NCBI GenBank assembly: GCA_030649895.1 | Contig: JAUSEX010000020.1 | Coordinates: forward strand, 23,109-87,108 | Length of the DNA stretch: 64,000 nucleotides | From: Candidatus Omnitrophota bacterium | Lineage (GTDB): Bacteria > Omnitrophota > Gorgyraeia > Gorgyraeales > Gorgyraeaceae | Direction: 5' to 3' | In this document: piece after piece, positions 3,300 to 64,000 of the stretch | Numbering within the stretch: the first letter of the stretch is position 1 | Layout of the letters: each line of letters begins with the position of its first letter | Position numbers and translations under genes: made by a program | Notes under the pieces: generated by a model | Told to the model about the DNA's origin: nothing | What the model saw: only the letters and a program-made list of their open reading frames with translations | Database searches by the model: none

Positions 3300-5381
3300 A
3301 TGATTCATAGAGTCGAAAGAAAAATAGGCAAAGAGACAATTATTATAGAAACAGGAAAGATGGCAAAACAGGCAAATAGCGCCGTGTGCGTCCGGTATGG
3401 GGGCACAGTGGTCCTGGTTACGGCTGTTTGCTCAAATGAACGAAGAGAAGGCATTGATTTCTTTCCTCTCACAGTGGAATATCAGGAAAAAACATACGCA
3501 GCGGGCAGGATCCCCGGAGGATATTTTAAGCGCGAAGGAAAACCCACTGAAAAAGAGATCTTAACCTCAAGGCTTATAGACAGGCCCATAAGGCCTCTTT
3601 TTCCGAAAGGTTTTATTAATGATGTCCAGGTTGTCGCTATGGTTCTTTCAAGCGACGGGCAAAATGATTCCGACATACTTGCGATCATAGGCGCTTCCTG
3701 CGCTTTAGCTATTTCCGATATACCTTTTATGGGGCCTATGGGAGCGGTAAGGATTGGTTTAGTGGCCGGAGAATTTGTGATCAACCCTACTTTCAAAGAA
3801 CTGGAAGAAAGTTCATTAAACATGGTTTCGGCGGGGCTTAAGGACAGGATTATAATGTTAGAGGCAGGAGCGAATCAGGTGTCGGAAGAGAAGATGCTTG
3901 AGGCGATAGAACTAAGCCAGGAATTTATAAAACTAAGCATAGAGCTTCAGGAAGAGCTTCAGAAAAAATGCGGCAAAGAGAAGATAAAGCCGGAATTGAA
4001 GCTTGTGTCCGGAGAACTGCTCGAAAAAGTAAAAAAACTTTCCCTGGAAGAGCTTAAAAAAATAAATTTGCTGCCCGCTAAAGAGCAGAGAGAAGATGCG
4101 TTCAATGTTTTAGCCAAGCAGATTGTGGAGAAAATGACTAAGGATGATGAGAATCTTAGCGAGGCTGACATTAAGAATGCGTTGCATGAAGTGGAAAAGA
4201 CCGAAGTCAGGAAGCATATTCTGGACAAAAAGATAAGGATAGACGCCAGGAAATATGAAGAAATAAGGCCGATAACCTGTGAAGTCGGGATTCTACCCAG
4301 GACTCATGGTTCAGGGCTTTTTACAAGAGGCCAGACCCAGAGTTTATCGATAACTACGCTTGGCACCAGCCAGGATGAGCAGAGGCTGGATACTCTTGAG
4401 GGCGAGAAATTCAAGAATTTTATGCTGCATTATAATTTTCCTCCTTTTAGCGTTGGAGAGGCAAGGCCGATGAGGGGCCCTGGCAGGCGCGAGATCGGGC
4501 ATGGCGCGTTAGCGGAAAGGGCGCTCAGGGCAGTTATGCCTTTAAATGCGGAATTTCCTTATACCGTAAGAATTGTTTCAGAGATACTTGAATCAAACGG
4601 TTCAAGCAGCATGGCAACTGTCTGCGCCAGCACTCTTTCCCTGATGGACGCAGGCGTCCCTATAAAAAAACCTGTTTCAGGTATAGCCATGGGCCTGGTA
4701 AAAGAAGGAAATGACGCGGCTATATTAACCGATATTGCCGGGTTAGAGGATCATTACGGGGATATGGATTTTAAAGTGACGGGAACCGACGCAGGCGTGA
4801 CTGCTTTGCAGATGGATCTTAAGATAGACGGGATAGACATGGACCTGATAAGAAGAATAATGAAACAGGCAACCCCTGCGAGGGCGTTTATTTTAAACAA
4901 GATCCTTGAAACGATAAACGCTCCCAGGACGGAACTCTCAGGGTATGCGCCCAGGATAACTACGCTGATGATAGACAAGGAAAAGATAGGCGCTTTAATA
5001 GGGCCCGGAGGCAAGATAATAAAAAAGATAATACAGGATACCGGCGCTACGATAGAAGTGGATGACGAAGGAAAGGTTTCAGTCGCTTCTGATAATGAAG
5101 AGGCTTCCAAAAAGGCGATCGATATGATAAAAGGTATTACAAGCGAGCCTGAGGTCGGGACGATTTACGAAGCTACTGTAAAAAAGATAATGAACTTCGG
5201 GGCGTTCTGCGAGATACTGCCAGGCAAAGAAGGCCTGGTGCATGTTTCCGAGCTCTCGGACAAGTTTGTTAAAAACGCAGAAGACGTTGTCAAGATCGGA
5301 GATAAAGTAAGAGTCAAGCTTATTAAAATAGATGAAATGGGCAGATTGAACCTGAGCATAAAACAGGCGATGGCCAGTTAG
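3300..5381 (+). CDS. pnp: Polynucleotide phosphorylase
   Basis: 693-aa protein with two RNase PH domains, KH and a C-terminal S1 domain (GKEGLVHVSELSDKFVKNAEDVVKIGDKVRVKLIKIDEMGRLNLS). Conserved position after rpsO. Confidence 0.96.
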   Translation: MIHRVERKIGKETIIIETGKMAKQANSAVCVRYGGTVVLVTAVCSNERREGIDFFPLTVEYQEKTYAAGRIPGGYFKREGKPTEKEILTSRLIDRPIRPLFPKGFINDVQVVAMVLSSDGQNDSDILAIIGASCALAISDIPFMGPMGAVRIGLVAGEFVINPTFKELEESSLNMVSAGLKDRIIMLEAGANQVSEEKMLEAIELSQEFIKLSIELQEELQKKCGKEKIKPELKLVSGELLEKVKKLSLEELKKINLLPAKEQREDAFNVLAKQIVEKMTKDDENLSEADIKNALHEVEKTEVRKHILDKKIRIDARKYEEIRPITCEVGILPRTHGSGLFTRGQTQSLSITTLGTSQDEQRLDTLEGEKFKNFMLHYNFPPFSVGEARPMRGPGRREIGHGALAERALRAVMPLNAEFPYTVRIVSEILESNGSSSMATVCASTLSLMDAGVPIKKPVSGIAMGLVKEGNDAAILTDIAGLEDHYGDMDFKVTGTDAGVTALQMDLKIDGIDMDLIRRIMKQATPARAFILNKILETINAPRTELSGYAPRITTLMIDKEKIGALIGPGGKIIKKIIQDTGATIEVDDEGKVSVASDNEEASKKAIDMIKGITSEPEVGTIYEATVKKIMNFGAFCEILPGKEGLVHVSELSDKFVKNAEDVVKIGDKVRVKLIKIDEMGRLNLSIKQAMAS

Positions 5382-5398: not shown

Positions 5399-6148
5399 AT
5401 GGGGTTATTGCAGGCGATAATTTCAGGGGTAGTGCAGGGCGTAGCTGAGTTTTTGCCGATTTCAAGCTCAGGCCATTTAGTTATTTTACATAAATTAATG
5501 GGCCTTAAAGAGCCTGAAATGCTTTTTGATATATTTTTGCACCTCGGAACCCTGGCGGCTGTATTTATAGTATTCGGCAGGGATATAGTAGAAAGTGTGA
5601 CTACTAAAAAAAGAATAGGTTTTTTGATTTTATTAAGCAGCGCCGTAACGTTTATTATCGCCCTTATTTTTATAAAAAATATAGAAGCGGCTTTCAGCAA
5701 TACTGGAACAGTCGGCGTTATGCTTGTAGTGACAGGCGTATGGCTTATAGCTGGCAATTTTATAAGGCTGGGGACGGAAGGCATGACGGTTTTTAAGGCC
5801 AGCCTGATTGGCCTTGCTCAGGGTATAGCGGCTTTACCAGGCATATCCAGGAGCGGCGCTACTATTTCTACGGGATTATTTTTAGGGCTTGACGGTCAGG
5901 CTGCAGCAAAATTCTCATTTCTATTATCCGTTCCTGCGATAATCGGCGCGTTTTTATTTAAAGTAAAAGAATCAGGGTTTGATCTTGCCGGCATAAATGT
6001 AAATTATTTTATCGGATTCTTTATATCTTGCATTGTAGGGGTTTTGTCATTAAAATTATTGTTAAAAGTTCTTTATAAGAACAAGTTTCACTGGTTCGGG
6101 GCGTATTGCATCTTGTTGGGGATAACAGCGTTATTGTTCATAAAATAA
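5399..6148 (+). CDS. uppP: Undecaprenyl-diphosphatase
   Basis: N-terminal GVVQGVAEFLPISSSGHLVIL and PGISRSGATISTGL are BacA/UppP signature motifs. 8 TM helices. Confidence 0.9.
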   Translation: MGLLQAIISGVVQGVAEFLPISSSGHLVILHKLMGLKEPEMLFDIFLHLGTLAAVFIVFGRDIVESVTTKKRIGFLILLSSAVTFIIALIFIKNIEAAFSNTGTVGVMLVVTGVWLIAGNFIRLGTEGMTVFKASLIGLAQGIAALPGISRSGATISTGLFLGLDGQAAAKFSFLLSVPAIIGAFLFKVKESGFDLAGINVNYFIGFFISCIVGVLSLKLLLKVLYKNKFHWFGAYCILLGITALLFIK

Positions 6149-6202
6149 TAATTTCTTACCCAATTTACACTTCGTAAGTGTAAATTCAGAGGCGACTATA
6201 CA

Positions 6203-8461
6203 TTGAGCAAGGATAGAAAAGATCTCATGGTTTCAATAGGTTTGTTTGTCCTGGCGCTGTTACTATTGGCCGGGATGATTTCCTACTCGTCTTACGATAT
6301 CGGTTTCGAGACATCCACCCCTAATATACATATCCGCAATTATATAGGAATAACAGGCGCATATACTGCGTGGGCTATATTCAAGCTGATAGGCTATGCC
6401 GGATTTTTTATCCCGTTTCTCTTTATTGTATGGGGCATAGGGATTCTGGCAGAGAGGCTGACCGGAAAACTATTATACAGAATCCTTGGAATTTTATTTT
6501 TATTTTCAGCCAGTTCTGCGTTTTTCAGCTTGACGGCAAGGCCTGATTCGGTTTTGATGGTTGCAAGAGGCGGGCTTTTAGGGTATGTATTAGCGGACAG
6601 GTTTTTGCTGGATTATCTTGGGGCTATAGGCGGGTACATAGTTACGGTAAGTTTAACAATACTGGCGCTTTTAGTAGCCACAGAATTTCTAATAGTGCCT
6701 GTAATCTCTATTTTATTAATGAAAACATGGGCTATAGCGGATAAGATAGGCAGGCAAAAAAGAGAAAAAGGCGTTACCGGTCATGCAAAAACTGAAAAAT
6801 TTGTCAGTGGCCCGAGATTGAGGCCTGCTGTGAAGGTGGAAAAAGCAGCTCAAGGCTCAAGGCTCAAGGCTCAAGGGGAAGAGATAGAAGACAAAAAAGA
6901 GACCAATTCTAAGGACAGGCCGAGGATAAATATAATGTCGAAGCCTGCGGCTAAACCTAAACCCGCGCCTGCAAAAGCAGTAAAGCTTGAGCCGAGAGTC
7001 GTAGGCGATTATAAGCTTCCAAGCCTTGATTTATTGGACTCTCCCGTATTTAAGCCGGGAAGTATTTTTGGAGAAAATCTGGAAGAAAGCGCGAGAATAC
7101 TTGAAGATACGTTAAGGGATTTTGGAATAGAGTCAAAGGTCATTGATATAAGCAAGGGACCTGTTATCACAAGGTATGAGTTGCAGCCCGCGCCTGGGGT
7201 GAAAGTGAACAGAATCACTAGCCTTAACGATGACATAGCCCTTACCATGAAGGCAACCACCGTGAGGATAGTGGCGCCTATACCCGGAAAATCATGCGTC
7301 GGCATAGAAGTGCCTAACGCGGATACCTCAATGGTTTTCTTGAGGGAAATATTGGAATCCAGCGAGTTTCAGAAGATGGCGGCTTCTTCAAAGCTTGCAA
7401 TGGCTTTAGGAAAAGATATCTCAGGTAAATCTGTCGTAACGGATCTTGGAGACATGCCTCATCTTTTAATAGCGGGCACTACCGGTTCAGGAAAAACTGT
7501 TTGCGTGAATTCCTTGATAATGAGCATGGTCTATAACGCTACGCCTGAAGAATTGAAATTTTTAATGGTTGACCCTAAGATGGTGGAACTTGCTATATAT
7601 AATGGACTGCCGCATTTATTGTGCCCTGTTGTTACTGACGCTAAAAAAGTCGCAGGCGCGCTTGGGTGGGTTGTAGGCGAAATGGAAGCAAGATATAAAA
7701 TGCTGGCCAAGATAGCCGCGAGGAACATAACTTCATTTAATCAAAAATCAGAAGAAAAGCTCCCTTACATAGTTGTCATAATAGACGAATTGGCGGACCT
7801 TATGATGGTTGCCCAGGAAGATATCGAGAACGCTATTACGAGACTAGCCCAACTTTCAAGGGCGGTTGGCATTCATATGATACTCGCTACGCAAAGGCCG
7901 TCAGTGGATGTGGTAACCGGCGTAATAAAGGCGAATTTTCCTGCAAGGATCTCGTTTAAGGTTGCCTCAAAGGTTGATTCCAGGACAGTTCTTGATATGA
8001 ACGGCGCAGATAAGCTGCTGGGAAAAGGCGATATGTTATTCTTGGAACCGGGAAGCCCCAAGCCTGTAAGGGCTCAAGGCACGTATCTTACGGACCCTGA
8101 GATAGAAAAGGTCGTAAATTTTATAAAAGCCCAGCAGGAACCGGTATATGACAATGAGATACTCGAGCACCAGAAAAAAAGCGTTTCAGGAAGAGGCGGT
8201 TTTGAAAAAGATGATTTTTTTGAAGAAGCAGTGCAGATGGTGCTTGAAACAGGCCAGGCGTCTGTTTCAATGCTTCAGAGAAGATTAAGGCTTGGCTATA
8301 CGAGGGCTGCCAGGATAGTGGACGCGATGGAAGAAGAAGGCATAATAGGCCCTTTCAGAGGCTCTAAGCCCAGAGAGATATTGATACAGGAATACCAGCC
8401 AAAAGAAGAAGAGGCTGTTGCTAAAAAAGAAGAAGAAAACCAGGAACAGATATCTAGCTAA
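6203..8461 (+). CDS. ftsK: DNA translocase FtsK. The start could instead be ATG 6227.
   Basis: N-terminal TM helices and a Pro/Lys/Ala-rich linker. FtsK/SpoIIIE ATPase with GTTGSGKTV Walker A, then a C-terminal gamma domain (QASVSMLQRRLRLGYTRAARIVDAMEEEGIIGP). Contains an in-frame GCTCAAG x4 heptamer repeat at 6848-6875. Confidence 0.92.
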   Translation: MSKDRKDLMVSIGLFVLALLLLAGMISYSSYDIGFETSTPNIHIRNYIGITGAYTAWAIFKLIGYAGFFIPFLFIVWGIGILAERLTGKLLYRILGILFLFSASSAFFSLTARPDSVLMVARGGLLGYVLADRFLLDYLGAIGGYIVTVSLTILALLVATEFLIVPVISILLMKTWAIADKIGRQKREKGVTGHAKTEKFVSGPRLRPAVKVEKAAQGSRLKAQGEEIEDKKETNSKDRPRINIMSKPAAKPKPAPAKAVKLEPRVVGDYKLPSLDLLDSPVFKPGSIFGENLEESARILEDTLRDFGIESKVIDISKGPVITRYELQPAPGVKVNRITSLNDDIALTMKATTVRIVAPIPGKSCVGIEVPNADTSMVFLREILESSEFQKMAASSKLAMALGKDISGKSVVTDLGDMPHLLIAGTTGSGKTVCVNSLIMSMVYNATPEELKFLMVDPKMVELAIYNGLPHLLCPVVTDAKKVAGALGWVVGEMEARYKMLAKIAARNITSFNQKSEEKLPYIVVIIDELADLMMVAQEDIENAITRLAQLSRAVGIHMILATQRPSVDVVTGVIKANFPARISFKVASKVDSRTVLDMNGADKLLGKGDMLFLEPGSPKPVRAQGTYLTDPEIEKVVNFIKAQQEPVYDNEILEHQKKSVSGRGGFEKDDFFEEAVQMVLETGQASVSMLQRRLRLGYTRAARIVDAMEEEGIIGPFRGSKPREILIQEYQPKEEEAVAKKEEENQEQISS
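6848..6875. repeat. Perfect heptanucleotide tandem repeat (GCTCAAG)x4 inside ftsK
   Basis: Read directly. Encodes AQGSRLKAQG in the FtsK linker. Confidence 0.9.
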
Positions 8462-59110: not shown

Positions 59111-59170
59111 GGTTCTTCAGCAGCTAAAATGCTAGTTATTGTCCGCATTTCTTAACGCTGCCTCAGGATC
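59111..59170 (+). repeat. tRNA-leader repeat, copy C, upstream of tRNA-Tyr
   Basis: GGTTCTTCAGCAGCTAAAATGCTAGTTATTGTCCGCATTTCTTAACGCTGCCTCAGGATC. A TAAAAT hexamer lies immediately before the tRNA 5' end. Confidence 0.7.
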
Positions 59171-59190: not shown

Positions 59191-59276
<86 letters not shown>

Positions 59277-59386: not shown

Positions 59387-59407
59387 CGGAGGGCGCCGAA
59401 TCCTTCT
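59387..59407 (+). repeat. Direct repeat of the last 21 nt of tRNA-Tyr (GAATCCTTCTCTGCCCACCA plus the preceding GCGCC), an att-like duplication
   Basis: Exact match to 59256-59276, lying 110 bp downstream of the intact tRNA. Confidence 0.7.
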
Positions 59408-59487
59408 CTGCCCACCAAATCCGCTGAAAGCGGATTTGATCTTGAGATTGCGACTGAATAAGGAGCAATCGAAAGACCTTATAAATA

Positions 59488-59732
59488 TGGATTTTTGGCA
59501 TGTCTATATCATAGAATGTAAAGATAAGAAATTTTATGTAGGCATAGCCAAAGATTTAGATAATCGCATTAAATTACATAGCAAAGGGCTGGCTTGTAGG
59601 TTTACAAAATATAGGAAGTTTATTAGATTAGTTTATAAAGAAACTTATAATACCAAGTCAGAAGCAAGAAAAAGAGAATTAGAAATAAAAGGGTATAAGA
59701 GAGAGAAAAAGTTAGAGTTGGCAGGTGGATAG
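59488..59732 (+). CDS. GIY-YIG nuclease superfamily protein (COG2827 / UPF0213-like small endonuclease)
   Basis: 81-aa protein: WHVYIIECKDKKFYVGIAKDLDNRIKLHSKG...EARKRELEIKGYKREKK matches the GIY-YIG fold motifs (YIYxL..G..YVG..D...R...H) and conserved Arg/Glu. The longer track ORF (59295) runs through the tRNA-fragment repeat and is probably not translated. Confidence 0.8.
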
Positions 59733-59790
59733 GTTCTTCGGCAGCTAAAATGCTTGCTTTGCTCGCATTTTTTACGCTGTCTCAGAATCA
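59732..59790 (+). repeat. tRNA-leader repeat, copy D, followed by a pseudo-tRNA fragment instead of an intact tRNA
   Basis: GGTTCTTCGGCAGCTAAAATGCTTGCTTTGCTCGCATTTTTTACGCTGTCTCAGAATC begins at the stop codon of the GIY-YIG gene. Confidence 0.7.
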
Positions 59791-59805: not shown

Positions 59806-59860
59806 GCTGGCGTAGCTCAACGGTAGAGCAATGGTTTTGTAATGTGATTTGAGCATTTTT
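59806..59860 (+). pseudogene. Degenerate tRNA 5'-half fragment (acceptor plus D-arm) similar to the tRNA(CAU) at 52164
   Basis: GCTGGCGTAGCTCAACGGTAGAGCA aligns with GGCGGCGTAGCTCAGCCTGGCAGAGCA of the upstream tRNA. No anticodon or T arms can be folded. Confidence 0.4.
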
Positions 59861-60227
59861 CATAACTCCTTGAAATTATTGTAACTACATTATATTGCAA
59901 TAAGTTAGAATGGGTTAAGAGCAGGCTTGAGCAGGCCCGAAAAGGCTGGTTATGGGCTGTGCATGGACAGCATTTGGACAGCAGAGTTATATTGAGTGTG
60001 TGGTGTGTTTTAAATGAGAAGAATACGATTCCCCTTGACGCTCAGAGGGAAGTCAGGTAAACTAAGCTATAATGAGTGGACATCATTCTTGCGATAGTAG
60101 GGGCAGCTATTAAAAAATATGGCTGTTATTTTTTTCTCTAAAATTGGGCAATTTTGTGGTATACTTATAGTAGGGGATAGCCGGGGGTTATACCCTAATA
60201 TTTGTCTATAAAAAGGAGGTGATAGAT

Positions 60228-60620
60228 ATGTTTAGAAAAATTTTAGGAATCAAGAAAGGTTTTTCTGGAGGTAAAAAAGTTTCTTCTCAAGTGGAATCCC
60301 TTTTAACCTGCTTAGAATATAAAGACGATGATTATTGTATAGCTCATTGTTTAGAGTTTGATATAGTTGCACAGGGAAAGACATTTGAGCAGGCTAATGA
60401 ATCTTTGGCAGAATTAATTAAAGAGCAGATAACTTTTGCTGTTGAGAAAGATTTAGAGGAGACGGTTTTATTTCATCCTGCTCCATCTAAATATTGGGAT
60501 ATAGTTCGCAACTTAAAAACAAAAATGGCTAGAAAAGAATTATTGAGCAGACCTAATATTACTACAGAGCAAATTTTAGATAGAACAGAATGCATTTCTG
60601 CCCATGCATACTCAAGATAA
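60228..60620 (+). CDS. hicB: HicB-family antitoxin (UPF0150 / RNase-H-like fold)
   Basis: YCIAHCLEFDIVAQGKTFEQANESLAELIKEQITF matches the HicB N-terminal domain. ATG 60228 sits 6 nt after AGGAGGTG; the track uses GTG 60219. Overlaps the downstream hicA by 17 nt. Confidence 0.65.
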   Translation: MFRKILGIKKGFSGGKKVSSQVESLLTCLEYKDDDYCIAHCLEFDIVAQGKTFEQANESLAELIKEQITFAVEKDLEETVLFHPAPSKYWDIVRNLKTKMARKELLSRPNITTEQILDRTECISAHAYSR

Positions 60621-60843
60621 GCCCCTCCCGTATCGTGAGATTCTCTCAAAGTTAAGAGAATTTGGCGTCCAAGAGATTAAAAGAAAAGGTGTTAAAATAA
60701 TATTATTTCATCCTAACGTTAATGGAAAGCCAGCTTCTTATCCTATGGATATTCATAAAGAGAGTCAGGTATTCAGTAGACCTGTTGTAAGGGCCATTAG
60801 AAATAGGTTCAATATTCCATTGGAGCAGTTTTATTCAAGATAG
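60604..60843 (+). CDS. hicA: HicA-family mRNA interferase toxin (YcfA-like)
   Basis: 79-aa protein: ILSKLREFGVQEIKRKGVKIILFHPNVNGKPASYPMDIHKESQVFSRPVVRAIRNRFNI fits the HicA dsRBD-like pattern (G.H..F.HP.....T.P.H....L...T...I..Q). Coupled to hicB. Confidence 0.6.
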   Translation: MHTQDKPLPYREILSKLREFGVQEIKRKGVKIILFHPNVNGKPASYPMDIHKESQVFSRPVVRAIRNRFNIPLEQFYSR

Positions 60844-60999
60844 ACATCGCAAGCCATAGCCATTCCTTCCGACTGAAAGCCAGCCAATAAAATAAGTCCT
60901 TGTGTTCATAAGAGAGAATTGATATAATTTTAGTATGAGCTTCCAGACATCTCAATTTAAATTGTGGCGGAAACGCTACGGAAAGACCCTTGTGCTTTG

Positions 61000-61029
61000 A
61001 GTCTGGATCTCGCACGGGGGTTTTTTATT
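61000..61029 (+). terminator. Candidate intrinsic terminator: GC stem followed by a T6 run
   Basis: CCCTTGTGC...GCACGGGGG TTTTTT ATT lies downstream of hicA. The stem is imperfect. Confidence 0.35.
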
Positions 61030-61039
61030 CAGAATAGGT

Positions 61040-61960
61040 TTCAGAAACTAATAGTGATATACCTTCCGACTGCGCACAGTCGGCCGAATGAGAAGATAGC
61101 TCGTCTACGGCTCGCAAGCCGTAGTTTACATAACGAAAGTTATGTAAAAGAGCTAAGCCAGTAATCACCGACCGTTATAGAGGTAATAAAGCTAAAGGGC
61201 ATACAGGCATTAAGCACGAACCCGCCTACATAGTAGACGGGACACAGTCATCACGCCGCGCGTGATGTCTGTGGGTGATTAAAGGTAAATAGTGGCATAT
61301 TCTTGAGGCAAACCACAAGAATGTGCCTCTATTTACCGCTGCCTGTATGCGTTCCTTAAATTCTTTATTACCTCTGTAACGGGAACCGACTATAGTGGAC
61401 ACTATAGGCGGTTAGGTGATGTATGGCGGTTCTTCGAATGGGCTTGTGATGTTGATGTGTTGAAGAGTTTCTATGCGTATTAACGTATGCCAGGGACACT
61501 GAGACGCTTGGAATATCGAAGACAAACGGATACACAATGGCGATGATAGTTTTTAGTAGTCGCAGCGAACCTGAACAATCGAAGCGTTCGCATTGGACAC
61601 ATTGATGGATTTGACATATCGCAGCGAACCTAAATAGTCGAAGATGTTGCCTAAGACGGCGGGCAGTTTAATTTGTTGAAGCGTTCGCATTGGACGCATG
61701 TTGGAGTTGAATATCACGCGAAACGTACTCACATAGAGTGTGGCTCGGATGAAGATGTAGCGCAGCGAAGCGCGCCTCCGAAGGACGACTCGCCGAATAG
61801 GCGAGACGGCGCGCGGAGCGGAGCGGGTCAACGCTGAAGATGTAGCGACACGACGAATAGGAGTGTCGCGGGCATAGGAAAGGAGAAGCTCGTTCTCGCG
61901 AGAAGCGAGAACGAGCGGACGACTGGCAGTTTAATTTGAAGTAATGAGCGCGAAGCGGCC
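61040..61960 (+). other. GC-rich, hairpin-dense noncoding block: three perfect tetraloop hairpins, a roughly 220-nt nested inverted repeat, then degenerate tandem hairpin repeats
   Basis: Hairpins CCGACTG-CGCA-CAGTCGG (61066-61083), CTACGGCT-CGCA-AGCCGTAG (61105-61124), TACATAAC-GAAA-GTTATGTA (61128-61147). Outer IR 61165-61208 pairs with 61329-61384. Repeated modules CGCAGCGAACCT..TCGAAG / GAAGCGTTCGCATTGGAC occur twice, and GGCAGTTTAATTTG twice. 12-bp perfect hairpin GCTCGTTCTCGC-GAGAA-GCGAGAACGAGC at 61888-61916. Confidence 0.6.
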
Positions 61961-62219
61961 GTAAAGTTTCATTGATTTTTCTTTCTTTTTAAGAACAATT
62001 TTTTAGTTTAACTTTAACACAATAAAACCGTGAAAAAAATAGAACTTTCAAGATTAAACATAGGTATGGTTCCAGCTCATACTCGGGGCAAAAACAATTT
62101 TGGGGGGAGAAAAAACAATGAATAGTTACTTGGTAACCTTGATACAAGCGAAGTAAAAAGTTTTGTTAGATGTCCAGAGAAAATAGCCTTTCATGAATAT
62201 ATAAGAGTAAGGAGCATAA

Positions 62220-62603
62220 ATGAGAAAGATCTTAGCGTTGTTATTGTGTTTGGGGTTGTGTGGATGTGCTTCTCTGAGTGGAGTTAGGACAATGAATAGG
62301 GAAAACTTATTGAAGTTATCTATTGGAATGACCAAACAAGAGGCGTTGAATGTTATGGGGACTAAGTCATTTGGAACATATACCGATGGTAGAATAAATA
62401 ATCCATATCGGAACGAAATTTTATCTAATAAAGAAGGCAAGGTCTTTGAAGTTTTATACTATTATACAGACGCAAAAAGGATAGACGGTGCTATTACCGA
62501 TGACGAACTTACTCCACTTATATTTGATAATGGAAAACTCACAGGTTGGGGTTGGAGTTTTCTACAGGATAATGTCCAGAAGTATGAATTGAGGATGAGA
62601 TAA
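62220..62603 (+). CDS. SmpA/OmlA (BamE-like) domain lipoprotein
   Basis: Lipoprotein signal with lipobox LGLCGC-A, then LKLSIGMTKQEALNVMGTK resembling the BamE motif. AT-rich codon usage. Confidence 0.55.
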   Translation: MRKILALLLCLGLCGCASLSGVRTMNRENLLKLSIGMTKQEALNVMGTKSFGTYTDGRINNPYRNEILSNKEGKVFEVLYYYTDAKRIDGAITDDELTPLIFDNGKLTGWGWSFLQDNVQKYELRMR

Positions 62604-62744
62604 ACTCCACTTTAGATACATAAAGCGAAGTTGAGAGAGGGAAAGATGCGTCAGAGATGCTGGCGAAAAGGTAATTTAATCCCTACAAGGAAATTTCAGA
62701 GAAAAGAAATTCGTATTAATTGTTAGAGTTAATTAAAAATATCT

Positions 62745-63467
62745 ATGCGAGAATCTAATAAATGTGTTATTTGTTTAAAGAATTTTAATAATTCTATTAA
62801 AGATGATTCCAAGACAGAGGAACACGTTTTTCCAAAATCATGGTATCCTGAAAGTACGCCCAATGACCTTGAAAAGTGGAAAGTTCCTTCATGCAGAAAA
62901 TGCAATAATGACTATAGCCTCTACGAGCAAAATTTATTAATTAGATTAGGTCTAGGTCTTTTTAAAAAAAATGAAAAATGTTCTGGAATAATAGAAAAAG
63001 CAAGGAGATCGATTGACCCAACATACGCAAAAAATGAGAGAGATAGGCAAAAAAGGTTAAAATGTAGAGAAGAAGTAATAAGAGATTTAAGTAGCTCAGA
63101 TAAGATATCTTCAAAAGGTATCTTGCCAAATTTTGGTGCTGATGAAAAAATCAAATATAAAGAATATCCTATTTTACTAATCAGAGCCGATTATTTAAAA
63201 AAGTTCGCCATTAAAATTGTCAGAGGGATGACATTCCTTTTTGATGGATTTTTGATAGAAGATGATTACGAGATCAATCATTTCTTTATAAAGGATGAAG
63301 AGCAAAAGCCTTTCATGGAAATTATAGATAAATTTGGAAGTACCGAACATAGAGGTCCTGGGATTGTTGTGGGACGAGCAGTAGTATTTGATGATCATAA
63401 ATCTTCTTTTTATAGAATTGATATTTGGGGGAAATTAAAAATTTTCGCAACTGTTAGAAGAAGGTGA
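62745..63467 (+). CDS. HNH-endonuclease-domain protein with about 180-aa uncharacterised C-terminal domain
   Basis: N-terminal CVIC..(22)..EEHVFPKS..(10)..NDL..(9)..CRKCNN fits the HNH pattern: CxxC, catalytic H, structural N, CxxC-N. The C-terminal region has no recognisable motif. Confidence 0.6.
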   Translation: MRESNKCVICLKNFNNSIKDDSKTEEHVFPKSWYPESTPNDLEKWKVPSCRKCNNDYSLYEQNLLIRLGLGLFKKNEKCSGIIEKARRSIDPTYAKNERDRQKRLKCREEVIRDLSSSDKISSKGILPNFGADEKIKYKEYPILLIRADYLKKFAIKIVRGMTFLFDGFLIEDDYEINHFFIKDEEQKPFMEIIDKFGSTEHRGPGIVVGRAVVFDDHKSSFYRIDIWGKLKIFATVRRR

Positions 63468-63523
63468 ATGATTTAAAATACTCTAATAAAGCGCTCATCT
63501 TTGTGTTAGACAGAAATAAAGAA

Positions 63524-64000
63524 TGATGATAAATATTACAATTACAGATATCAATGCTGTTTTAGGTATTTTATTTGGTCTCTCGGGTTTAACCCTTGCT
63601 ATTATAAATTATCATCGTGATAATCCGAAGATAGTTGTAGATTTGAGCTGGGATATGAGGATGATTGAAGTTGGTGGAGGGCCACAAAATACGGATAAGT
63701 TGCATGGTGTGATAACTGTAACAAATATTGGAAGAAGACCCATCTATATTAGTCACGTATCGTTAAAACTACCCTCAAAAGGTTATCTTCTCTTAATAGA
63801 AGGGGTATCAGGGCAGAAGCTTACTGAAGGAGATACACCAAGGACATTTACGGTTAGCCATGATCAAATAATTCAAAAAATTGGTGGGCGTTTACAAAAA
63901 CAACCGAATATGTGGAGACTAATAAGAGCTCAAGTTAGTGACTCAGCAGGTAAAGTATATTTATCAAAGAAAATAAAGAATTGCCCTGATTGGGCTAAAA
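63524..64000 (+). CDS. Single-pass membrane protein of unknown function, 3'-truncated by the window
   Basis: ATG 63524. One N-terminal TM helix (AVLGILFGLSGLTLAII) then a soluble beta-rich domain. The frame is open to the window end, so it is absent from the ORF track. Confidence 0.4.

Follow-up and report, generated by a model that had tools for sequence, protein, structure and literature searches.

In integrons, recombination takes place at a core site of the form GTTRRRY, between the G and the TT. Among the functions of integron-associated genes, endonucleases of the families PF14279 and PF01844 rank with the most abundant (PMC7370490). Integron cassettes serve as stores of defence genes, and those without an assigned function frequently turn out to protect against phages (10.1101/2024.07.02.601719); the same is stated, with reference to Science papers of 2025, in a further paper (10.64898/2026.03.17.712381). 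Here we describe the end of a stretch of 64,000 nucleotides from Candidatus Omnitrophota bacterium (assembly GCA_030649895.1, contig JAUSEX010000020.1, positions 23,109 to 87,108), which is called the window throughout. Three plus-strand open reading frames (ORFs), g1, g2 and g3, lie in its last 1.8 kb. The best explanation, to which we give a probability of about 0.65, is that the window end is a decayed array of integron-type cassettes, one of which carries a solitary HNH_5-like nuclease (g2), possibly acting in defence, and that g3 is separate from it. An initial annotation had instead seen in g2 and g3 the two parts of one possible defence or exclusion module within a tRNA-linked island.

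Cassette boundaries at the window end

The switch to AT-rich DNA from which that annotation started is borne out, the GC fraction being 0.334 at 62000-64000 against 0.419 in the whole window and 0.474 in the ORF-free block 60850-61960, and the ORF coordinates place all three genes after it on the same strand; the spacer between g2 and g3 measures 55 nucleotides (nt) rather than 56. The features are as follows.

62220-62603, plus strand: g1, gene of a DUF3192-family lipoprotein (PF11399) of 127 amino acids (aa) with a signal peptide and the lipobox LCGC; upstream of the array and outside it.
62643-62674, plus strand: remnant of the 3' end of the gene for a small Xer-like tyrosine recombinase, aligned with relatives; reads ...EMLAKR, then stop.
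62675-62728, plus strand: conserved module 3' of the recombinase gene, ending ATTAATTGTTAGAG; attI-like insertion point of the first cassette, with the core GTTAGAG at 62722-62728.
62723-63505, plus strand: g2 cassette of 783 bp, its limits taken from homology breakpoints; ORF 62745-63467, 240 aa.
63480-63513, plus strand: truncated attC-like site of the g2 cassette, CTCTAAT...GTTAGAC, with the L boxes deleted and the core GTTAGAC at 63505-63511.
63506-64000, plus strand: g3 cassette, reaching the window end; ORF from 63523, 159 codons of a protein of about 162 aa.

Comparison with the related loci L004, L095, L096-98 and L013-14 (L numbers designate the loci compared) places homology breakpoints at TTGTTAGAG (62721-62728) and GTGTTAGAC (63503-63511). 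Homology of L095-98 and L013-14 with the window starts at 63504-63505, and in four independent comparisons the breakpoint falls on the G of GTTAGRC. At 62722 (GTTAGAG) and at 63505 (GTTAGAC), a core of the form G/TTRRRY (the slash marking the point of recombination) is accordingly found together with the exchange of genes one by one. Loci L096-98 are 96% identical to the window over 63505-64000 and hold a gene for a 136-aa secreted protein in the slot of g2; L095 is 86% identical and holds a 123-aa gene there; and L004 contains g2 (84% identity, frameshifted) and no g3, the end of the array following directly. One and the same g3 cassette thus stands behind different genes in L096-98, L095 and L013. 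Hence g2 and g3 are independent single-gene cassettes, separately acquired and replaceable, and the accessory nature ascribed to the region at the outset is confirmed, its DNA being exchangeable between related genomes.

Between g3 and the gene before it, the related arrays have a hairpin of 56-78 nt with the layout YTAAC-AA-n-AATCCAGC ... GCTGATTT-n-CGTTAGG, corresponding to R''-L''...L'-R' with one bulged base. In ten such sites 83% of the cells are paired, against 22-45% with slid partners, and five pairs are compensatory; as these ten seeds were chosen partly by hairpin strength, the pairing test is not fully independent. A covariance model (R1) built only from groundwater arrays, without classical integrons, recognized in Xanthomonas chitinilytica (L035) six evenly spaced, co-oriented sites (E from 1e-5 to 3e-4), so that each small ORF has an attC site behind it. 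Two of these sites, 5904-5966 and 6693-6755, enclose the g2 homolog of this locus (5980-6699), and the opposite strand encodes a 367-aa protein with a score of 473 bits on TIGR02249 (integron integrase, cutoff 265); L086 and L021 contain integron integrases as well, with 475 and 407 bits. With the second-generation model R2, attC arrays were detected around the g2 homolog in L086, L022 and L046, single adjacent sites in L067 and L069, and weaker ones in L021, L019 and L029. The g2 family therefore occurs as a cassette beside IntI in Xanthomonas, Rhodanobacteraceae and Aidingimonas. As for g3, it is flanked in L013 by attC matches at 1343-1416 and 1980-2058, and in L096 and L095 an attC precedes it. 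Both families are therefore cassette-borne elsewhere.

Within the window itself, the best match of both R1 and R2 over the whole length and both strands is 63480-63513, which follows directly on the g2 ORF and has GTTAGAC at its end. This site keeps the R boxes and a short stem and has lost the L boxes; L004 retains a longer version of the attC, and the best match in 2 kb of this locus stands immediately before g2 (E = 0.069). In the mechanism that we propose, the array would begin at the conserved site ending GTTAGAG, just 3' of the last ~30 nt of a deleted recombinase gene, and at least two single-gene cassettes would each have been gained or replaced separately by site-specific recombination at G/TTRRRY. 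The window copy of g2 is presumably immobile at present, its attC being truncated and the recombinase deleted. Beyond position 64000 we expect the codons for IQK and a stop, followed by a short attC-like hairpin, GTCTAAC...GGTTAGTTAGCC.

The g2 nuclease family and its possible role

Residues 3-57 of g2 give weak profile matches to HNH_5 (E = 0.0015) and PtuB (E = 0.0019). The HNH_5 (PF14279) score lies below the Pfam gathering threshold (18.9 against 27.5 bits), as do those of its relatives (13-27 bits), and an hhalign alignment to a canonical HNH_5 protein spans residues 5-66. Among 95 aligned family members, H27, C50, C53, N54 and R104 are invariant and C7 and C10 are kept in 94, within the motif CxxC ... 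(D/E)H(V/I)xP ... CxxCN, so that the catalytic His, the Cys4 zinc ligands and the metal-binding Asn that define HNH (His-Me finger) nucleases are all found in the family. The HNH motif recognized in the initial annotation therefore stands in these residues; its further element, the Asn of NDL (N40), is not conserved. The active site would consist of a Cys4 zinc finger, the catalytic His and the metal-binding Asn, and g2 is probably an active metal-dependent nuclease.

The AlphaFold2 model of g2 is a single compact structure (predicted local distance difference test, pLDDT, 92.5; predicted template modelling score, pTM, 0.89), with strands at 23-27 and 46-50 followed by a helix at 51-70. A Foldseek search with this model against the PDB and viral models (BFVD) returned nothing at E ≤ 1e-3, and residues 60-240 are matched by no model in Pfam, NCBIfam, PADLOC or PHROG. 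The earlier description of a nuclease motif fused to an uncharacterized remainder is thus upheld, and the structure prediction that it called for yields a confident fold without a match among solved structures; the composition of the C-terminal part (K 11.7%, D 7.8%), which had been singled out as Lys/Asp-rich, is not notable. Besides the invariant R104, the residues D100, K157, G161 and W228 are conserved in this remainder of ~180 residues, a compact part not described before that may choose the target.

A word-indexed search had found 17 relatives of g2, and an exhaustive search with a profile raised the number of cluster representatives to 2666 at E ≤ 1e-3, of which 449 are at E ≤ 1e-30; almost all have about 240 aa and match over their full length. 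An exact-sequence look-up of the window's g2 gave no record. The family is distributed over Proteobacteria, Cyanobacteria, Acidobacteriota, Planctomycetota, Nitrospirota and candidate phyla. The neighbourhoods of the family were surveyed in 80 genomic loci from many phyla (Nostoc, Geobacter, Xanthomonas, Rhodanobacter, Acidobacteriota, Planctomycetota and Nitrospirota) and in seven metagenomic contexts. Clustering of the neighbouring ORFs in 79 g2-family loci revealed no conserved neighbour beyond lineage synteny, and the 125 immediate neighbour proteins include at most two members of any one Pfam or PADLOC family. A fast-evolving partner of ~190 aa downstream of g2 homologs was considered and rejected: same-strand ORFs of that size are common there, but they are mutually unrelated. 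In L021 (Aidingimonas lacisalsi), a second, canonical HNH_5 protein of 222 aa is encoded directly after the g2 homolog (6743-7408), shares with it the nuclease motif only, and has the integron integrase 1.4 kb upstream.

A nuclease that acts alone, with neither a methylase nor an immunity or ATPase partner, has to spare the DNA of its own cell unaided, and the best-known route to this end is modification-dependent cleavage of the type IV kind. Because g2 is solitary and lies in a cassette, we rank first, tentatively and at somewhat below even odds, the proposal that it is a one-protein DNA-targeting defence nuclease, which by analogy to type IV enzymes would discriminate foreign DNA. If so, g2 may be the founder of a new family of single-protein anti-phage nucleases with a new fold for target recognition.

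Ranked second, and unlikely in our estimation, is the alternative that g2 is a selfish or toxic nuclease, either a free-standing homing-type endonuclease or a toxin that stabilizes the array by addiction. Its patchy occurrence across many phyla, always solitary and in unrelated neighbourhoods, would be in keeping with such a role, as would the disrupted copies: the homolog in L004 (160-1010), the closest relative on a long contig (84% DNA identity), is frameshifted, and those in L056, L082, L083 and L092 are split or truncated, so that decay of the gene is frequent. Integron arrays are moreover rich in stabilizing toxin genes (PMC7370490), and HNH domains are frequent in homing endonucleases (PMC5714182). 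However, no antitoxin-like neighbour family recurs beyond lineage synteny in the loci examined; as to homing, g2 is never found within an intron, an intein or another gene at these loci, attC recombination accounts for its movement, and it has no phage or plasmid copies. The defence nuclease thus remains our preferred role for g2. What the survey has brought to light is a large family of solitary HNH nucleases of ~240 aa, repeatedly found as integron cassettes and with a fold that has no solved relative; because compact genes for phage defence have recently been recognized in many cassettes that had no assigned function, the family offers a concrete and cheap candidate for defence screens and a possible source of a new DNA-recognition domain.

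The recombinase remnant and its element family

The segment 62643-62727 of the window matches ~27 metagenome loci, which share with it the final ~30 nt of a gene for a tyrosine recombinase and a module of ~55 nt ending in ATTAATTGTTAGA. The remnant aligns with the 3' ends of the recombinase genes in L096, L095 and these ~27 loci, the homology always setting in at 62642-62645; that of the module stops at 62726-62727, and homology with the g2 cassette of L004 begins at 62721. An apparently empty junction, ...ATTAATTTGTTAGCCGACCGTCGCAAAAG, is seen in L183. A protein search with the recombinase C-terminus found 53 database proteins, all of them fragments of 39-111 aa and none full length, and a scan for the DNA pattern found 83 recombinase loci, 31 of them with intact genes for proteins of 197-248 aa. 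These intact recombinases are Xer-like and consist of the catalytic domain only, scoring 63-68 bits on TIGR02249 (cutoff 265) and matching only the C-terminal part of that model.

In the intact relatives the element has a constant backbone, composed of a ParA-like gene, a small ORF, a RepA-like gene for 300-444 aa, the recombinase gene for 197-248 aa and a variable cargo, after which come an inverted-repeat site, GTCGCAAAAG-N5-CTTTTGCGAC, and a further half-site ~55 nt on. In L096-98 this inverted repeat lies ~60 nt past the g3 stop codon, just outside the range of the window, and in L095, L096 and L004 it is followed by acyP, a metallophosphoesterase gene and ligA. The elements are abundant in groundwater and sediment metagenomes (L099-L188, e.g., L121, L146, L167, L182 and L187); L146 has two copies on one contig, and tandem accretion leaves recombinase 3' fragments behind. 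All attC matches detected in the recombinase loci (30 of 30) are co-oriented with the recombinase gene. As a separate observation, a repeat of ~130 nt, CTCTGAAAGTGCCAAATAACC...CTTAGAGCAAAAA.ATCTTGCAA, occurs three times in L099 (~4930-5060, ~5540-5680 and ~7030-7160) around a recombinase fragment and cargo, and is absent from the window.

We consider it possible, though doubtful, that the array belongs to an undescribed integron-like platform, in which attC cassettes are gathered directly downstream of, and co-oriented with, a Xer-like recombinase of ~200 aa that is not IntI. Insertion would then take place on ParA/RepA-type elements at the conserved site ...ATTAATTG/TTAGCC-GACC-GTCGCAAAAG-N5-CTTTTGCGAC (the slash marking the insertion point), and tandem growth would leave recombinase 3' scars, of which the window keeps one. 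The cassettes may be handled either by the small recombinase or by IntI acting in trans at a favoured secondary site. If the link between recombinase and cassettes is functional, the range of platforms known to collect cassettes would become wider.

The same backbone lends itself to a simpler account, namely that the segment is the cargo of an integrated plasmid-like or integrative element, rearranged by ordinary recombination between elements, with the GTTAG junctions and the hairpins incidental. The conserved order from the ParA-like gene to the inverted repeat agrees with this account, as do the recombinase 3' fragments left by tandem accretion and the many cargo regions behind the recombinase that are tightly packed operons without attC. 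We nevertheless regard it as improbable, because a model trained on these arrays recognizes the attC sites of a classical Xanthomonas integron, the 30 attC matches share the orientation of the recombinase gene, the breakpoints fall on the G of GTTAGRC in four independent comparisons, and g2 relatives reside in canonical integrons.

The lack of attC in those cargo regions also weighs against the reading of the window end as a decayed cassette array with a defence nuclease, and so do the following observations. The site at 63480-63513 is a 34-nt remnant with weak scores (12.2 bits, E = 3, with R1; 14.8 bits, E = 0.5, with R2), and being weak and truncated it makes the window copy of g2 look like a fossil cassette. 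This one weak attC remnant is all that the window holds, the site after g3 lying past 64000, and the counterpart of the latter in L096 is a 46-nt hairpin without a model match. A complete integron is not present, no IntI being found in the window, and the idea that the remnant itself is the IntI of an 'inverted' integron is ruled out by the NCBIfam scores and by the length of the intact copies. An adjacent attC accompanies g2 homologs in ~6-10 of ~68 non-redundant loci, most of which (e.g., in Nostoc) are ordinary chromosomal contexts; defence cassettes are likewise reported at ordinary chromosomal sites (10.1101/2024.07.02.601719). With regard to defence, a tblastn search with g2 against phage and plasmid records gave no match, PADLOC-DB 2.0.0 yielded weak HNH-motif matches only (E ≥ 0.0019), and defence genes are sporadic among the 125 immediate flanking proteins (GmrSD_C, HEC-06, a kinase), no far-flank control having been run. 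Finally, the disrupted g2 copies indicate that the gene is dispensable, and they would fit any dispensable gene.

Neighbouring genes and comparison with known systems

The product of g3 is predicted to be a separate membrane-anchored beta-sandwich protein. Its model (pLDDT 81.8) shows an N-terminal membrane helix and a beta-sandwich, with generic beta-sandwich and pilin-like similarities only (best E = 1.1e-3, template modelling score ≤ 0.49), and scans of PADLOC-DB 2.0.0, Pfam, NCBIfam and PHROG gave no match. Relatives of g3 have 153-166 aa, and judged by the 96%-identical one of 162 aa, the window copy lacks the last three codons (IQK) and the stop only; the membrane-anchored, beta-rich protein of the initial annotation is therefore supported by the model, but what runs off the window is just this short end.

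Established defence systems include some that combine an HNH protein with a membrane protein. A single new anti-phage or exclusion system of this kind, made up of g2, g3 and perhaps also g1, in which the membrane protein would be the sensor or effector and the HNH nuclease its partner, is very improbable in spite of the shared strand, the 55-nt spacing, the AT-rich composition that suggests a joint foreign origin and the lack of a terminator-like site between the two genes, because the g2 and g3 families never occur together in ~90 other loci, at 96% DNA identity g3 follows another gene and a bona fide attC marks the boundary, g2 in L004 directly precedes the array end without g3, and PADLOC models match neither g1 nor g3. 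In the survey, none of the g2 loci has a relative of g1 or g3, and in seven contexts with g3 relatives none has a g2 relative next to it. The proposed HNH and membrane-protein module is thus not sustained, with no shared neighbour in 79 loci, other genes in the g2 slot of the closest g3 relatives, and g3 found to be unrelated to g2; the statement that the pair matches no named defence system holds, the PADLOC matches of g2 being those given above. A promoter and terminator scan of 61900-64000 gave matches at chance level. The lesson is that neighbours in an AT-rich island need not form a system; each gene here would be its own mobile unit.

For g1, the label BamE-like is replaced by DUF3192 (PF11399), which is matched over residues 24-113 with 58.3 bits (Pfam cutoff 26.9, E = 8.5e-16); the matches to BamE (PF04355; 16.7 against 23.2 bits, residues 25-50 only) and to OsmE are sub-threshold. 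PADLOC-DB 2.0.0 gave no match for g1, and its homologs are absent from every related array and from all g2 loci examined. It was considered as a further cassette, there being a GTTAGAT 50 nt upstream, and rejected, as no attC match lies near it and no related array has it; the recombinase remnant sits between g1 and g2. This DUF3192 lipoprotein gene lies upstream of the array and is unrelated to it.

The supposed tRNA-linked defence island is not general. In the syntenic locus L151, the order is a carbohydrate-kinase gene, tRNA-Tyr, a second tRNA, three housekeeping-type genes, an MNT/HepT pair, a half-site, a recombinase fragment and cargo, and because housekeeping genes stand between tRNA-Tyr and the array, the latter is not generally linked to the tRNA. 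In the window, the stretch from tRNA-Tyr to g1 is a local rearrangement. The 3'-terminal 21 nt of tRNA-Tyr (59256-59276) have a second copy at 59397-59417, the ~60 nt that follow the stop codon of the carbohydrate-kinase gene (59111-59170) recur after a GIY-YIG gene (59733-59790), and a tRNA fragment, GGCGTAGCTCAACGGTAGAGCA, remains at 59809-59830, where L151 has the intact second tRNA; these repeats and the fragment are signs of old insertions and rearrangement. The GIY-YIG gene (59484-59732), between the tRNA repeats, encodes a stand-alone protein of 82 aa (PF01541, E = 4.9e-15). Two overlapping ORFs of 133 and 79 aa (60219-60620 and 60604-60843) are a candidate antitoxin-toxin pair of the HicB/HicA type, weakly supported, with no Pfam match at 0.01 and a PHROG 'toxin' match at E = 0.017.

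Within the GC-rich, ORF-free block 60850-61960, the 261 nt at 61160-61420 are predicted to adopt a multi-branched fold whose long stems pair almost perfectly (-135 kcal/mol, z = -13.5) and which is just as strong on the other strand. The same architecture is found in a homolog in L182 (1290-1560; z = -11.9), with stem sequences that differ yet stay paired, and no Rfam family matches the structure, which we regard as a candidate structured RNA or DNA element. A hairpin within it (61284-61337), with the loop TTGAGGCA(A/G)(A/C)CC(A/G)CAA and with variable, compensating stems, is also found in L117, L120, L121, L139, L143 and L182, contigs that carry the recombinase elements. The GC-rich non-coding DNA at 61540-61960 contains direct repeats (61544-61584/61603-61643), GAAGCGTTCGCATTGGAC, GGCAGTTTAATTTG and TGAAGATGTAGCG twice each, and a perfect 12-bp hairpin at 61888-61916. 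Searches of the block for CRISPR, tandem repeats, Rfam families and group II introns found none.

The locus is worth comparing, gene by gene, with the systems that it most resembles. Like the small lipoproteins of the BamE/OsmE/DUF3192 group, g1 has ~125 aa and a signal peptide with a lipobox and scores above the threshold of DUF3192, whereas it is no BamE orthologue, its score falling below that threshold, and has no connection to the cassettes. With the HNH_5 nucleases, including PtuB of Septu, g2 shares the CxxC...CxxCN motif and a weak profile match; in contrast to Septu, no PtuA-type ATPase gene neighbours it in the window or in the 79 loci, and its remainder is specific to its family. 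A working analogy for how g2 could spare its own DNA is type IV restriction of the McrA type, whose enzyme is likewise a solitary HNH nuclease with an extra domain, without a methyltransferase and sporadic in accessory DNA; the domain order is however reversed in g2, with the HNH part N-terminal, and its remainder has neither detectable similarity to known modified-base reader domains nor a match among solved structures at E ≤ 1e-3.

As to the platform, the Xer-dependent modules (plasmid dif, pdif, modules and integrative mobile elements exploiting Xer, IMEX) are likewise tied to a Xer-like recombinase, and the relatives of the array end at an inverted repeat with a 5-nt spacer, GTCGCAAAAG-N5-CTTTTGCGAC, like a simple core site of a tyrosine recombinase. 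Here, however, the recombinase is a dedicated protein of ~200 aa, restricted to the catalytic domain and encoded beside the cargo, and the internal boundaries are attC-type hairpins instead of paired dif-like sites; the window stops before the end site. From integrons the window differs in having no IntI, in that the array starts behind ~30 nt of a Xer-like recombinase gene and not at an attI beside intI, and in that the attC of g2 is cut to 34 nt. In common with integron cassettes of unknown function, whether in sedentary chromosomal integrons or in clusters of attC sites lacking integron integrases (CALIN), it has single, co-oriented ORFs with short spacers and bounds at G/TTRRRY, and its relatives show, for each cassette, an attC hairpin with R and L boxes and a bulged base, together with the swapping of cassettes one at a time.

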